Shown: positions 55,751 to 59,319, counted from the whole stretch's first letter. The stretch is 62,832 bases of DNA, filler included, from Collodictyon triciliatum (GCA_043381765.1; 5 parts of 5 records of this genome joined end to end with filler, not necessarily neighbours in it); one strand, 5' to 3'. The notes: generated by a model not told the origin, from the letters alone. A program made the numbers and translations.

Positions 55751-58700
55751 TTTGTTACTGTTTCCAAAAGTTCCTACTGGGCATTCAATACATGATGCGT
55801 TGCTTGTTGAACCAAACCTTGGATTAAAAGTTCCTAAAAAACATTCAAGACACGAAATCTGGCCGATATGTGGATTGTATGAGCCAGGCTGGCAAAGTTC
55901 ACAAGTTGATTCGCCTGTTTTTGATGAAAATCTTCCTTTAGGACATGGCTGACAGCTGCTTATACTGGTTGATGCAACATTTGGATTGAATGAACCAGCC
56001 GGGCATTTTTCACAAGTGATTGATTTTGTTTTGTTTGAGTAAGTACCAGTGGAGCATGTGATACAAAATTGCCTTCCTTTCTCATTCATGAAAAATCCAG
56101 CAGGACAAGCGAAGCAGCTTGACTTTCCATCGACGCTGTTGTATGTTCCTGGTTCGCATAGCAGACAGGACGAATTTCCACCACCTCGATTGCCCGGATT
56201 GAAAGTTCCTGCTGGACACGGAGCACACGACTTATCTCCTGAATTGCTGTAAAATCCAGCAGTGCAATTACTACATGAAATTTGACCCTTTATATTATTA
56301 AATGTTCCAGCTTCGCATTTTTTGCATATTGATTGGCCCAAAAGATTATTGTATGTTCCTTCCTCACAAAGAAGACAATCTCTAAGACTCGTTGAGCCAG
56401 TCGATGGATTATAAGTTCCAGTTGGACATAATAAACAAGAGGTGAGCTCATTTCCGTTATTGTAAGAGCCAGTTGGACATTTTTCGCATGCATTTGATTG
56501 CTGGTTGAAAAAATATCCTCCTTGGCATGGGCTCCAGACTTTGATAAATCTATCAGTGCTTGCTGAAATTATTTTTGAATCTGAAGTAGCGAAAACACTA
56601 TTAACTGAGTCTGTGTGGCTCAAAAGTGTTCGAATTTCTCTTCCATCTGATAATGTCCATATTTTCACTGATTTATCACTGCTTCCAGAATATAATTTTG
56701 TTCCATCAGATGATATTGAAACTCTATTTACTGAGCTTGTGTGTCCGTTAATTGTTCTGATTAATGTGCCATCTGAGATATTCCAAATTTTGATTGTGTT
56801 ATCGCTGCTTCCAGAGATGATTTTTGTCCCATCTGGAGAAGTAATGACGCATCTGACAGCATTTCCGTGTCCGGTTATGGTTCTTAATAATATTCCATCT
56901 GACAAATTCCATAATTTTATTGAAAAATCAGCACTGCCTGAGATAATTTTGCTGTTATCTGGAGTGATTAAAACAGAATTCACACTTTTGGTATGCCCAG
57001 ATAAGGTAAGAATTAAAATCCCATCTGAAACTCTCCAAACATTTATATTTGTATCATCGCTTCCTGATACTATAACGGAACTATCTGTTGTTTTTGCTAC
57101 GCTTCTAACAGCTGAAGTATGACCGTTAAATGTTCTCAATAATAAAGCATCAGAGAAATTCCACATCTTTATTGTCTGGTCGCTGCTTCCTGAGACTATT
57201 TTTGTTCCATCAGCCGAAACAACAACACTATTCACAGCATTTGTATGGGCGTTTATTGAAAGCGCTTGGGAACCATCAGCATAATTCCAGATTCTAATTG
57301 TGTTATCACTGCCTCCTGATACAATTTTTGTTTTATCTGGGCTCAAAGCAACGCTATTCACTGAACTTGAGTGGCCTGAAACTGTCAAAATCAAACTGAA
57401 ATCAGGAAAGTTCCACAGTTTGATTGTTGTGTCATCGCTTCCTGACAAAAATCTGGAGCCATCTGAGAGAACTGAAATTCCATTAACTGTAAACCCATGT
57501 TCATTCACAATATTTATTGTGACTCCATTAAAAAAATTCCAAATTCTGAGGGTGCAATCACTGCTTCCAGAAACAATTTTTGAGCCATCTGAAGAAATAG
57601 AAGTTGTCTTAACGATTCCAGTATGCCCATTGAGTGTGCGAATTAAGCTCCCATCTAAAATGCTTGTTATTTTGATTGATTTGTCGCTGCTTGCAGAAAC
57701 AATTTTTGTTCCATCTGATGTGATTAAAACGCAGTTCACAGAATCAGTGTGAATTTTTATTTCTTGAACTAATGTTCCATCAAAAAAATTCCAAACTTTG
57801 ATTGATTTATCAGCACTTCCAGAAACAATTTTTGAGTCATCAGGAGTTAAAGCAAGACTCGTTACAATTCCAGTGTGTCCACTTAATGTTCTAATTAATC
57901 TTCCATCAGATATGTTGGTAATTTTTATTGTTTTATCGCTACTTCCTGATATAACACTAGTTCCATCCGTTGTGGTTACAAGACAGTATATGGACTCACT
58001 ATGGACCAAGAATGATTTGATCAAAGACCCGTCATCTACGTTCCAGACTTTAATCGATTTGTCATTGCTTCCAGAAATTACTTTGGAGCTATCTGGTGAT
58101 AGTATTAATGCGTTCACTATGTCTGAATGACCATTCAAGGAGCGAATTAAAGCGCCATCGGATAATTTCCAAATTCTGATAACACTGTCTGAATGACCTG
58201 ATATTGATATTGATTTCGATTGAGAAGAAATTGTGCTTGTAATTCTAGAGCCTCTGGAGTATTTACAGCTTCCATCAGAGAAATTCCAAAGTCTTACAGT
58301 TCTATCGTAACTCCCAGAAACAATTCTTGAGCCATCGGGAGTGACAGCAACACTGTAAACAGTACCAATATGGCCAGTCAATGTGCGAATCAAAGCTCCA
58401 TCAGAAAGATTCCAAATTTTGATTGTTCTATCCCAACTTCCAGAAACAATTTTTGAGCCATCAGGAGTAACGGCAACACTTTCAACAATACTAGTATGGC
58501 CAGTCAATGTGCGAATCAATGCTCCATCAGAAAGATTCCAGATTTTGATTGTATTATCATAATTTCCAGAAACAATTTTTGAGCCATCAGGAGTAACAGC
58601 AACACTGTAAACAGTACTTGTATGACCAATCAATGTGCGAATCAAAGCTCCATCAGAAAGATTCCAAATTTTGATTGTTCTATCCCAACTTCCAGAAACA

Positions 58701-59319
58701 ATTTTAGACCCATCAGGAGTAACAGCAACACTGGTAACACCACTAGTATGACCAATCAATGTGCGAATCAAAGCTCCATCAGAAAGATTCCAGATTTTGA
58801 TTGTATTATCATAACTTCCAGAAACAATTTTTGAGCCATCAGGAGTAACAGCAACACTGGTAACACCACTAGTATGACCAATCAATGTGCGAATCAAAGC
58901 TCCATCAGAAAGATTCCAGATTTTGATCGTATTATCACCGCTTCCAGAAACAACTTTTGAGCCATCAGGAGTAACACTAACACTCCGAACCCAACTAGTA
59001 TGACCAATCAGTGTACGAATCAAAGCTCCATCAGAAAGATTCCAGATTTTGATTGTTTTATCATCATAACCACCGGAAACAATTTTTGAGCCATCAGGAG
59101 TAACAGCAACACTGTGAACATAACTATTATGGCCCGTTCCAATAGTGTAAATCGATGATACTTGCCCTTCAACAAGACACAGTTGGCAGTGAAGCATCAA
59201 TCCTAAAAATATATCAATTAAAATTCTATGTAATTTGAAGTCAATAAAATTAAAACAATTAAAATGTAAAACTCACCCAATAGCAGCAGAGCTGCAAACG
59301 ACTTTGAGTTCAATCTCAT
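52512..59319 (-). CDS. Secreted/cell-surface protein: signal peptide + 21 WD40 repeats + Cys-rich CxxCPxGT(Y/F) repeat stalk (>2200 aa, C-terminus truncated)
   Basis: ATG at 59319 and one 74-nt GT-AG intron (59276-59203) give MRLNSKSFAALLLLGLMLHCQLCLVEG|Q. WD40 repeats span ~59140-56530. Ephrin-receptor-like/GCC2-GCC3-type Cys repeats run from 56530 to the scaffold end. Confidence 0.92.
58270..59140 (-). repeat. 126-bp (42-aa) high-identity WD40 tandem repeat, 7 copies
   Basis: Near-identical GHTSxVxSVAVTPDGSKIVSGSxDxTIKIWNLSDGALIRTL units. Confidence 0.95.

Follow-up and report, generated by a model that had tools for sequence, protein, structure and literature searches.

Immune-type receptors of fungi distinguish self from non-self by means of WD40 propellers with near-identical blades that differ at four contact residues each. 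Among the closest described counterparts of the gene analysed here are the fungal HET-E, HET-D and HNWD proteins, which carry WD40 units of 42 residues (126 nucleotides) that are more than 80% identical to one another (PMC1805685, PMC12222747). In Podospora HET-E, the positively selected codons are 7, 9, 25 and 27, which lie in pairs around the conserved codons 8 and 26 and are located in the d-a loop and the b-c turn of the blade, with purifying selection acting elsewhere in the unit (PMC1805685). Similar rings are found in the highly repetitive (HR) WD40 propellers delimited by Hu et al. (2017) with an internal repeat identity cut-off of 0.7, in which diversity is concentrated at predicted hot-spot sites (PMC5587647). 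Ascomycota and Basidiomycota make up 84% of the eukaryotic WRAP/HR examples in the published survey, and the WRAP/HR proteins described are cytoplasmic and coupled to NTPase, TIR, caspase or kinase modules (Pfam lists; PMC9218822). The residues termed R1-2, R1 and D-1 make top-face contacts in 29 WD40 complexes, and aromatic or charged residues are typical of WD40 binding hot spots (PMC3419727).

Outside the cell, the nearest described arrangement is that of the CRINKLY4 (ACR4) ectodomain, in which a signal peptide is followed by a seven-bladed propeller and then by one TNFR-like cysteine-rich domain (CRD). The propeller is called an extracellular WD40 domain by its authors, who describe it as functionally essential and as the putative ligand-binding part (bioRxiv 10.1101/2020.08.10.245050). 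A head-plus-stalk order is also seen in an unnamed family of protist and animal proteins in which a Kelch or RCC1 propeller, within about residues 30-460, precedes Ephrin_rec_like, NCD3G or TNFR-like modules; its members carry annotations such as 'Galactose oxidase, central domain' in Carpediemonas. Here we describe a gene of Collodictyon triciliatum, a microbial eukaryote that probably lives in fresh water, in which a ring of near-identical WD40 blades stands at the N-terminus of a cysteine-rich stalk. It was found in a window of 62,832 nucleotides (the whole stretch of DNA that was analysed), for which an earlier sequence-only reading had proposed a variable recognition surface of the HET-E/NLR kind.

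Results

Gene layout and domain order

The gene lies on the minus strand of one 10.3-kb contig in a fragmented assembly whose contigs end in microsatellites. Its first exon (59277..59319, 43 nt) contains the start codon, an ATG at 59319-59317 with in-frame stops upstream, and encodes most of a signal-peptide-like N-terminus. The intron that follows (59203..59276) is 74 nt long and of phase 1, with canonical GT..AG borders and a T-rich 3' end, and its removal puts exon 1 in frame with the long ORF of exon 2 (52512..59202). The latter is a single open frame of 2,229 codons that runs off the contig end at 52512, so that the 3' end of the gene is absent; the adjoining 52412-52511 is an artificial spacer joining contigs. 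At the spliced N-terminus, two basic residues lead into a hydrophobic stretch (11-residue Kyte-Doolittle maximum 2.79). In the 3.5 kb upstream of the gene, the longest open frame does not exceed 83 codons, and no second gene copy, paralogue or donor cassette was found within the window. Scans with Rfam and for tRNAs found nothing. On another contig of the window, an RNA-polymerase exon matches one transcriptome protein at 67% identity.

The encoded protein runs from the signal-peptide-like segment through 21 WD40 units (residues 18-895) to at least 31 Ephrin_rec_like cysteine-rich modules (residues 895-2229). Pfam PF00400 (WD40) matches 20 stretches with 606 bits (cut-off 27; E 2.8e-189), and PF07699 (Ephrin_rec_like) matches 31 stretches, all of them after the propellers. 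The Pfam matches of the visible 2,229 residues belong to WD40-type and cysteine-rich families only, with no NACHT (NOD) NTPase domain among them, and because the WD40 units and cysteine-rich modules fully occupy this length, it leaves no space for one. A HET or other death/effector domain is likewise absent, the signal-peptide-like N-terminus leading straight into WD unit 1.

The first part of the stalk (55751..56515, minus strand) is non-repetitive and made of Ephrin_rec_like/TNFR-like modules, and the remainder (52512..55750, minus strand) is an array in which a cysteine-rich super-repeat of 93 residues (279 nt) occurs at least 11.6 times before the contig end cuts it. Cysteine accounts for 145 of the 1,334 stalk residues (10.9%), and the visible part of the protein contains no transmembrane-grade hydrophobic segment (none above 1.15 over 19 residues). 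Ephrin_rec_like/TNFR-type modules are extracellular disulfide-bonded folds. From the hydropathy profile of the N-terminus and the nature of this stalk the protein is predicted to be secreted, and the earlier description of a secreted protein with no NACHT domain in view agrees with these results. We therefore infer that the gene product is probably a very large secreted or surface protein whose visible part comprises three WD40 propellers and a long cysteine-rich rod.

Seven near-identical blades precede fourteen diverged ones

WD40 units 1-7 (58265..59146, minus strand) form propeller 1, an 882-nt array in a 42-codon register that Tandem Repeats Finder places at 58271-59131, with a period of 126 nt repeated 6.8 times and matches of 88%. 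Units 2-6 (58391..59020, minus strand; the start s of unit k is 59020 - 126(k-2)) are 83-94% identical in DNA, with a mean of 89.1%. The near-identity of repeats 1-7 that had been read from the DNA is thus real, with unit 7 standing lower (70-81% DNA identity to units 2-6) and unit 1 carrying two one-codon indels while being otherwise nearly identical from GH onward. Mean amino-acid identity is 0.886 for units 2-6 and 0.819 for units 2-7, and propeller 1 is the only one of the three with the internal repeat identity of at least 0.7 that defines HR propellers. The Asp-His-Ser-Trp tetrad (H7, S25, D29, W35) is present in all six of units 2-7. The whole propeller has a single Cys; it also has seven N-x-S/T sites. 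Exact repeats within the array reach 92 nt. Given this repetition, the fragmented assembly and the known errors of short-read data, which in HET-E arrays may misstate how many repeats there are and how they are arranged (PMC12222747), the count and arrangement of the seven units are less certain than the pattern of variable sites.

Beyond the first propeller, the repeats are ordinarily diverged, as had been noted. An irregular Ser-rich linker together with a partial WD unit 8, for which the profile covers unit positions 24-42 only, occupies 58148..58264 (minus strand) and opens propeller 2, and units 9-21 (56516..58147, minus strand) continue through propellers 2 and 3, the 7+7+7 division of the 21 units resting on unit counts and alignment. 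DNA identity is 57% within units 9-14 and 59% within units 15-20. The hot-spot residues here are small or polar: position 28 (D-1) is S, A, D or N in 12 of the 12 units tabulated (units 9-20, about 57% identical), and position 12 is N in seven of them. Aromatic or charged hot-spot residues occur in propeller 1 only, and the hypervariability is confined to this N-terminal propeller, as the sequence-only reading had claimed. Run without an alignment on the whole 900-residue WD region, AF2 gave a pLDDT of 32.5.

Four codons per blade carry the variation

Within propeller 1, codons 10, 12, 28 and 30 of each unit (s-27..s-29, s-33..s-35, s-81..s-83 and s-87..s-89 on the minus strand for units 2-6) are hypervariable and flank the conserved Val 11 and Asp 29. 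The residues reported for units 1-7 are found exactly as given: Y,W,G,G,T,I,T after GHxx; H,R,T,T,Y,E,Y two residues further; Y,G,Y,W,Y,W,Y before the conserved Asp; and D/K,N,N,R,N,R,R after it. Among units 2-6, these codons show 59% nucleotide difference, as against 5.8% in the other 38 codons, and 11 of their 12 nucleotides segregate compared with 16 of 114 elsewhere (Fisher one-sided 6.7e-8). Per-codon pN is 0.77, 0.87, 0.56 and 0.47 for codons 10, 12, 28 and 30, respectively, and the four together have a pN of 0.659 and a dN of 1.58, whereas the remaining 38 codons have a pS of 0.164, a dS of 0.18 and a pN of 0.023, with a dN/dS of 0.13. The nonsynonymous excess expected at these sites is therefore present, dN of the four codons being about 8.6-fold above dS elsewhere by a counting method on 5-6 units rather than by a likelihood test. 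At a minimum, 17 mutations fell on the 12 hypervariable nucleotides, compared with 9 synonymous changes over some 28 synonymous sites (binomial 2e-4). Because the four sites were chosen after inspection, site shuffles were run to allow for the choice; 12 segregating nucleotides, as observed, were attained by the best four codons in 14 of 200,000 shuffles, and 18 minimum mutations, again as observed, in none of 200,000.

The 93-residue cysteine-rich units of the stalk provide a control array in the same gene. Their units 2-9 are 87.3% identical in DNA with a dN/dS of 0.23, their variation is scattered (top per-codon pN 0.46 versus a pS of 0.30), and they contain no hot spots comparable to those of propeller 1. 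The blades of propeller 1 are instead mosaics, in which the site pairs occur as GT+YN, GT+WR, TY+YN, IE+WR and TY+YR, and a W-D-R module with its own linked synonymous marker is found in units 4 and 6. Since all four combinations of GT or TY with N or R are found among the blades, either recombination or recurrent change is needed to account for them. A diversity-generating retroelement or RIP-type mutagenesis was considered as the source of the variation and rejected: no template copy is in view, and the changes include transversions and affect all three codon positions, which is not RIP-like.

The model places the variable sites in the B-C turn and at the beginning of strand A

The AlphaFold2 model of propeller 1 is a confident ring of 28 strands in seven blades (pLDDT 89.7, pTM 0.86). 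In this model, position 10 is the residue just ahead of strand A, position 12 is the second residue of strand A, and positions 28 and 30 stand on either side of the tetrad Asp within the B-C turn. The spacings between positions 10 and 28 (18) and between 12 and 28 (16) match the G-beta spacings of R1-2, R1 and D-1. Thus, the four sites are the modelled top-face positions R1-2, R1, D-1 and D+1, a placement read from their secondary-structure position in the AF2 model together with the published WD40 rules. Foldseek ranks the Nostoc highly repetitive propeller 2ymu and WRAP-derived designs as the nearest structures (TM 0.84-0.86, 48-51% identity), 2ymu being the best match at 48% identity and TM 0.86 (phmmer E 2e-210). 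Other searches were less specific: residues 1-420 as a protein query gave 6,736 matches dominated by generic WD40 proteins, with Reticulomyxa filosa NB-ARC proteins among the best named ones (51%), and the ESM Atlas yielded generic WD40 clusters only (0.83-0.85, below the useful range).

Codons 10, 12, 28 and 30 are the positional equivalents of HET-E codons 7, 9, 25 and 27 with a register offset of 3, which bears out the correspondence with Podospora HET-E that had been proposed. The likeness extends to the 42-residue units and to the combination of nonsynonymous excess at four positions with purifying selection elsewhere. The gene differs from HET-E and HNWD in having neither a HET nor a NACHT domain, in placing its propeller at the N-terminus behind a predicted signal peptide and fused to a cysteine-rich stalk, and in having exactly seven near-identical units, after which come 14 diverged ones. 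For the HNWD genes, it was shown that alleles are polymorphic, that repeat number varies and that paralogues exchange sequence, whereas one gene copy has been read here. Nor is the pattern special to fungal NLRs, as the earlier framing would have it. Bacteria, fungi and protists share it (PMC5587647 and our own tally), and of 54 other proteins with at least six near-identical WD40 units, position 10 is among the four most variable in 50, position 12 in 39, 28 in 38, 9 in 37 and 30 in 19. The four-site pattern itself is therefore already known from HIC, HR and WRAP propellers, and what distinguishes this gene from its fungal and bacterial counterparts is an intron, a predicted signal peptide and a stalk of a type typical of protists and animals.

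A WD40 head on a stalk that otherwise carries Kelch or RCC1 propellers

Among the 120 stalk relatives listed, identity to the Kelch- or RCC1-headed proteins is 29-41%, with none above 41%; 18 of the 120 have an RCC1 head, eight a Kelch head, and none a WD40 head, either by Pfam listing or by the unit profile. The propeller was N-terminal in all six Kelch- or RCC1-headed proteins checked, as it is here, although they have one propeller and the present protein has three. None of 258 proteins retrieved combined WD40 units with the stalk, the best 150 matches to the WD40/stalk junction being either WD40-rich or stalk-rich; relatives with few repeats could rank below these 150. A metagenome locus scan gave four loci at 29-36% identity, all generic stalk proteins. 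A published description of a WD40-Ephrin_rec_like protein was not found in the literature searched on this architecture and on extracellular or secreted WD40 domains.

The order of parts resembles that of CRINKLY4, but the blades do not. Each CRINKLY4 blade has a disulfide and the closest structure is the RCC1-like BLIP-II (10.1101/2020.08.10.245050), whereas the blades described here consist of canonical GH..W repeats and possess the Asp-His-Ser-Trp tetrad, and the stalk has more than 31 modules in place of a single CRD. A transmembrane helix or kinase such as CRINKLY4 possesses cannot be seen here, since the contig stops within the stalk. What is new is thus the context, namely a WD40 propeller as the N-terminal head of a predicted secreted, cysteine-rich stalk protein with no NACHT or HET domain.

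Related sequences in metagenomes

Short contigs from three freshwater metagenomes are 88-99% alike to the locus and contain further variants at the hypervariable codons. In one contig, codons 10-12 of unit 4 are changed to a combination absent from the window, in another codon 12 of unit 3 is changed, and codons 9-10 of unit 5 have lost 3 nt altogether through two deletions. These contigs are 128-156 nt long and at least 88% identical on the repeat array, and an allele, a paralogue or a related species are all possible sources of the variants. There are 327 further differences in the metagenome contigs beyond those described, and one contig (56394-56608) spans the WD40-to-stalk junction at 56515. 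Related sequence was found in three DNA sequencing runs at small shares (0.05-0.07), with no RNA run listed. Joints that skip repeats in the metagenome data were considered as a sign of repeat-number variation and set aside, their sides of 22-29 letters being too short as evidence.

Discussion

The connection between a known hypervariable propeller pattern and an extracellular-type stalk is probably best explained if propeller 1 is a HIC/HR/WRAP-type ring on a secreted stalk, shaped by concerted evolution together with selection for a varied ligand-binding face. According to this reading, duplication at the level of the blade, with unequal crossing-over or gene conversion, would keep the blades about 89% identical, while selection would keep the R1-2, R1, D-1 and D+1 residues different from blade to blade. 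The outcome would be one ring with a varied aromatic and charged face, putatively ligand-binding, at the far end of the molecule. By analogy with HET-E and the bacterial WRAP sensor propellers, propeller 1 may act as a protein-binding surface that can be quickly re-tuned, but one that faces the exterior of the cell and is not linked to an intracellular NOD ATPase. Ligand binding by this face, and a role in the recognition of other cells, prey or pathogens, would be consistent with the anatomy and the site pattern. The variable recognition surface proposed from the sequence alone is thus partly supported, with the four HET-E positions, their placement at strand A and the B-C turn, the nonsynonymous excess, the N-terminal confinement and the extracellular-type context all in its favor; its framing as a speciality of fungal NLRs does not.

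The differences that we describe are between blades within one ring of one gene copy, which is distinct from polymorphism between individuals, and the reading that competes most seriously with a face kept diverse by selection is that propeller 1 was recently amplified from a single blade or a two-blade unit and then fitted by directional selection to one fixed ligand, giving a single asymmetric site in a monomorphic, single-copy gene. New propellers are continuously amplified from single blades in all propeller lineages (PMC9218822), Hu et al. interpret the hot-spot diversity of HR WD40s as adaptation to different partners (PMC5587647), and at this locus there are exactly seven units, enough for one closed ring, with no paralogue within the window. 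Moreover, the closest units pair as 3 with 5 (94.4%) and 4 with 6 (92.1%), as expected after the duplication of a two-unit block. If units 3-4 did give rise to 5-6, however, five of the six nucleotides of codons 10 and 12 would have changed per copy compared with about 6-8% elsewhere, which is very fast for stepwise fitting. The occurrence of all four combinations of strand-A pair and site 30, with the recombination or recurrent change that it demands, and the other residues at the same codons in related metagenome contigs also speak against a fixed ligand, and we regard this reading as rather unlikely. Much less likely still is that constraint is simply relaxed, with four positions free to vary while concerted evolution homogenises the rest. 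Surface loop residues are indeed the least constrained part of a WD40 blade, and purifying selection acts on the other codons of the unit. Nevertheless, sites without constraint should change at close to the synonymous rate and not 8.6-fold above it, the excess of mutations on the 12 hypervariable nucleotides points the same way, and homogenisation tracts would need to jump single codons. The aromatic or charged nature of the residues is also that of binding hot spots (PMC3419727).

It is similarly improbable that the assembly has collapsed paralogous or allelic arrays into one chimera whose seven units never occur together. The fragmented assembly, the 92-nt exact repeat and the unreliability of Illumina assemblies for HET-E-type arrays (PMC12222747) all lend something to this concern, but a collapse scrambles order and number and would not create codon-specific variation, and the underlying repeats would show the pattern of variable sites all the same. 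The frame, moreover, is open over 2,229 codons, and the seven units are predicted to fold as one closed ring. Least probable of all, in our estimation, is a mis-called first exon, with the WD40 part acting inside the cell as an ordinary scaffold. Canonical WD40 propellers are overwhelmingly intracellular, and the blades of propeller 1, with their one Cys, do without the stabilising disulfides of the extracellular CRINKLY4 propeller. Against a cytosolic protein stand the canonical in-frame splice to a hydrophobic N-terminus with stops upstream, the cysteine content of a stalk made of extracellular folds, and stalk relatives with the same head-plus-stalk order.

Returning to a secreted ring under selection for a varied face, a more far-reaching version of it is that the quickly re-tuned WD40 sensor ring of NLRs was transferred to the cell exterior in a microbial eukaryote. 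The protein would be an extracellular counterpart of HET-E-type allorecognition without a NOD, in which a polymorphic, repeat-shuffling head on a long cysteine-rich stalk acts as the surface receptor by which kin, mates, prey or pathogens are recognised. It would then also be the first among the surface proteins with a propeller and Ephrin_rec_like modules to have a WD40 head. We offer this version tentatively, as a possibility that we would not yet favor.

HR WD40 propellers with hypervariable contacts have so far been associated with immune-type STAND/NLR proteins that act inside fungal and bacterial cells, and the same evolutionary device is seen here on a stalk protein that is predicted to be secreted. 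If the pattern holds, the combination of concerted evolution and diversifying selection for a variable surface would not be bound to NOD signalling and would be usable at the cell surface as well. The gene would also offer a way into a large group of protist proteins, as yet uncharacterised, that bear a propeller on top of an Ephrin_rec_like stalk, in which the head would be the ligand-binding part and four residues per blade the specificity code.

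Gene structure and genomic setting

The gene lies on the minus strand of the last contig (52512-62832, 10.3 kb). It opens with a 43-nt exon whose ATG is at 59319, downstream of in-frame stops, followed by a 74-nt intron with canonical ends (59276-59203) and one long open exon that is in frame after the splice and runs from 59202 until the contig stops at 52512. After splicing, the N-terminus resembles a signal peptide: two basic residues precede a hydrophobic core whose hydropathy peaks at 2.79 over 11 residues. A Pfam scan found 20 WD40 stretches (E 2.8e-189), 31 Ephrin_rec_like stretches (E 2.6e-207) and, beyond these, only overlapping WD40-type and TNFR/NCD3G-type families; a 7-residue Parecho_VpG match (29.7 bits, cut-off 25; residues 502-508 of the stretch 52520-56515, minus strand) was set aside as chance in low-complexity cysteine-rich repeats. 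By our unit profile, residues 18-895 comprise 21 WD units. The 1,334 residues beyond them form a stalk with 10.9% cysteine, of which the last 1,080 are at least 11.6 copies of a 93-residue (279-nt) super-repeat (52512-55750, minus strand), ended by the contig end. The sequence-only reading had described a secreted-type protein with no NACHT domain. This unusual context is borne out: with the signal-peptide-like N-terminus in place, WD40 and cysteine-rich modules fill the visible protein, which leaves no room for a NACHT domain and contains no transmembrane-grade segment.

The 3.5 kb upstream (59320-62832) hold no frame longer than 83 codons and have a G+C content of 24-33%. Because metagenome contigs 88-99% alike still cover this region, we take it to be single-copy DNA of the same organism rather than assembly junk. 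The 62,832 bases of the window are five separate contigs, about 10.3 kb each except one of 21 kb, divided by artificial spacers (10336-10435, 20761-20860, 41990-42089 and 52412-52511) of 44 N, a 12-base six-frame stop linker and 44 N. Gene neighbourhood across the spacers is therefore meaningless, and the other four contigs are unusable as genomic context; microsatellites at the left ends of four junctions indicate that the assembly is fragmented. Other contigs carry intron-split pieces of a G-protein alpha subunit (6241-8139, plus strand) and a GSK3-like kinase (43086-45200, plus strand), both named by eye from translation, and of the RNA-polymerase second-largest subunit (15846-19735, minus strand), whose sole database match is a transcriptome protein with Rpb2 domains at 67% identity.

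Four hypervariable codons in the N-terminal propeller

Units 1-7 (59146-58265, minus strand) make up propeller 1, and in their 42-codon register the four residue series singled out by the sequence-only reading, at codons 10, 12, 28 and 30, are exactly right. In DNA, units 2-6 share 83-94% of nucleotides (mean 89.1%; protein identity 88.6%), and unit 7 has 70-81% identity to this group; two one-codon indels set unit 1 apart, which is otherwise nearly identical from GH onward. Later units are ordinarily diverged, as had been proposed (units 9-20, about 57% identical).

The hypervariability of the four codons is real and far beyond chance. Among units 2-6 the mean pairwise nucleotide difference is 59% at these codons and 5.8% at the other 38 (third positions 11%), and 11 of 12 nucleotides segregate in the four codons versus 16 of 114 elsewhere (Fisher 6.7e-8). 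The nonsynonymous excess is large: pN reaches 0.659 (dN 1.58) at the four codons, as against a pN of 0.023, a pS of 0.164 (dS 0.18) and a dN/dS of 0.13 at the other 38. The clustering of segregating sites in the best four codons was matched in 14 of 200,000 site shuffles, and that of minimum mutations in none of 200,000; since the shuffles also take their best four codons, the post-hoc choice of sites is allowed for. A conditional test comparing 17 mutations at the 12 hypervariable nucleotides with 9 synonymous mutations at about 28 synonymous sites gave p = 2e-4.

The variable sites in the fold and in other repetitive propellers

An AlphaFold2 model of propeller 1, for which propellers 2 and 3 of this protein supplied all alignment rows, has 28 strands in seven four-stranded blades (pLDDT 89.7, pTM 0.86); the whole 900-residue WD region folded without an alignment reached a pLDDT of 32.5. 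The Asp-His-Ser-Trp tetrad is intact in units 2-7. In the model, strand A begins right after position 10 and has position 12 as its second residue, and the conserved Asp of the tight turn joining strands B and C stands between positions 28 and 30, so that the sites cluster at the start of strand A and the B-C turn. Wu et al. (PMC3419727) describe the residues R1, R1-2 and D-1 as making top-face contacts in 29 WD40 complexes, and in G-beta these are residues 18, 16 and 34. Given the spacings of 16 (12 to 28) and 18 (10 to 28), and the place of position 28 just before the tetrad Asp, positions 10, 12 and 28 correspond to R1-2, R1 and D-1, an assignment made from strand position and spacing. An N-x-S/T sequon stands just after the Trp in every propeller 1 blade (58265-59146, minus strand); propeller 1 contains 7 sequons, the WD region 11 and the stalk 39. 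Were the protein secreted, N-glycans might decorate the blades on the side facing away from the hot spots.

The proposed likeness to fungal HNWD/HET-E proteins withstands comparison. Paoletti et al. (PMC1805685) found strong positive selection on codons 7, 9, 25 and 27 of the 69 Podospora HNWD repeats; each pair encloses a conserved codon (8 or 26), and the sites lie in the d-a loop and b-c turn at the propeller top. With an offset of three, they coincide with codons 10, 12, 28 and 30 here. Fungal NLRs are not alone in having this pattern. In 305 highly repetitive WD40 proteins from prokaryotes, protists and fungi, Hu et al. (PMC5587647) report that most sites are conserved and predicted hot-spot sites diverse. 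In our own comparison of 54 proteins, which were drawn from the best matches to this gene rather than from an unbiased sample and which have at least six units each at least 72% identical to the medoid unit, position 10 was among the four most variable in 50, position 12 in 39, position 28 in 38, position 9 in 37 and position 30 in 19, and every other position in fewer than seven. Since these tallies add up to 54 x 4, they do not include the window's own protein, which has five qualifying units. Among solved structures, the nearest are 2ymu, a Nostoc "highly repetitive propeller", and designer propellers derived from WRAP (identity 48-51%, TM 0.84-0.86); WDR5 is at 36%. Among the most similar WD40 arrays are the metagenome proteins P0010 and P0115 (50-53% identity, 10-14 near-identical units), which one source names "WD40 repeat protein/subtilase family serine protease" and for which a CARDB domain is listed; they suggest that secreted or surface propellers of this highly repetitive kind may also exist in bacteria.

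Change within the array and controls from the same gene

The strand-A and B-C residue pairs of units 3-7 form a mosaic (GT+YN, GT+WR, TY+YN, IE+WR, TY+YR). All four combinations of GT or TY with N or R at position 30 are present, which requires recombination within the unit or recurrent change. The W-D-R module common to units 4 and 6 has a synonymous marker linked to it at codon 34, and units 3 and 5 share a Y-D-N module; these are the closest non-adjacent pairs (3/5 94.4%, 4/6 92.1%). The pairing is compatible with duplication of a two-unit block followed by replacement of five of the six nucleotides of codons 10 and 12 per copy. No further unit copy occurs elsewhere in the 62.8-kb window.

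The stalk super-repeat provides an internal control. It is a second array in the gene, homogenised independently, with a DNA identity of 87.3%, a dN/dS of 0.23 and scattered variation; codons 51, 77 and 44 have a pN of 0.43-0.46, the highest per-codon values, mildly over the pS of 0.30. At the hot-spot positions of propellers 2 and 3 (56516-58147, minus strand), residues are small or polar: across units 9-20, the 12 that were tabulated, only S, A, D or N occupies position 28, and seven units have N at position 12. Position 28 of propeller 1 is Tyr or Trp in five of units 2-7, and its other hot-spot positions hold Arg, Glu, Tyr, Trp and Ile. Hypervariability is limited to the outermost propeller, as the sequence-only reading had it. 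Of the three rings, the N-terminal one alone looks like a binding face, and the bland top faces of propellers 2 and 3 are as if these were spacers or scaffolds rather than binding rings.

Relatives and environmental occurrence

When 1.84 billion representatives were scanned in full by HMMER with a 460-residue query across the WD40/stalk junction, the best matches (the top 150) were either WD40-rich or stalk-rich, and none of the 258 proteins examined combined WD40 and stalk. Among shorter proteins, a word-based search that used the junction and first stalk region listed 120 stalk relatives (26-41% identity); RCC1-type propeller families occur in 18 and Kelch-type in 8, and WD40 in none of the 120 by either Pfam lists or unit profile. 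In all six stalk relatives scanned, the propeller is N-terminal and cysteine-rich modules follow, which makes a propeller head on an Ephrin_rec_like stalk a recurrent architecture. The gene is a WD40-headed, three-propeller variant of it. Our literature search on the WD40-Ephrin_rec_like combination yielded one relevant item and the nearest published analogue found, the plant CRINKLY4 ectodomain, described as a signal peptide, an essential seven-bladed propeller and a TNFR-like cysteine-rich domain (bioRxiv 10.1101/2020.08.10.245050). Its blades, as described there, are disulfide-stapled and RCC1/BLIP-II-like, unlike those of propeller 1.

Three freshwater metagenomes from three studies contained 5-7% of sampled words. 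Many of their contigs (130-290 nt, 88-99% alike) fall on 56000-62832, over both the coding part and the AT-rich upstream DNA, which indicates that a close relative of the source organism lives in fresh water. The WD40-to-stalk junction (56515) is spanned by a 215-nt metagenome contig that shows 13 differences, so the fusion is seen in independent data. One contig over 58698-58853 has codons 10, 11 and 12 of unit 4 in a combination absent from the window, two runs differ at position 58860, which belongs to codon 12 of unit 3, and unit 5 has two deletions at codons 9-10 that together remove 3 nt. These differences, a minority of all those present, lie on short repeat-array contigs that are not assignable to alleles, paralogues or species; they hint that more hot-spot variants exist.

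Discussion

On the kind of pattern, on where the sites lie and on the unusual protein context, the sequence-only reading was right, while polymorphism and a biological role in recognition are hypotheses. We consider it somewhat probable that the gene product is secreted or exposed at the surface and that its distal WD40 ring serves as a binding face that can be re-tuned quickly; concerted evolution would maintain the ring, and selection would favour diverse contact residues on that face. The main rival, a recently amplified ring that is being fitted to one fixed ligand, seems to us rather unlikely.

The pattern of hypervariability was itself already known. What is new is its setting: a probably extracellular stalk protein without any NOD module, for which no relative was found among the proteins searched.
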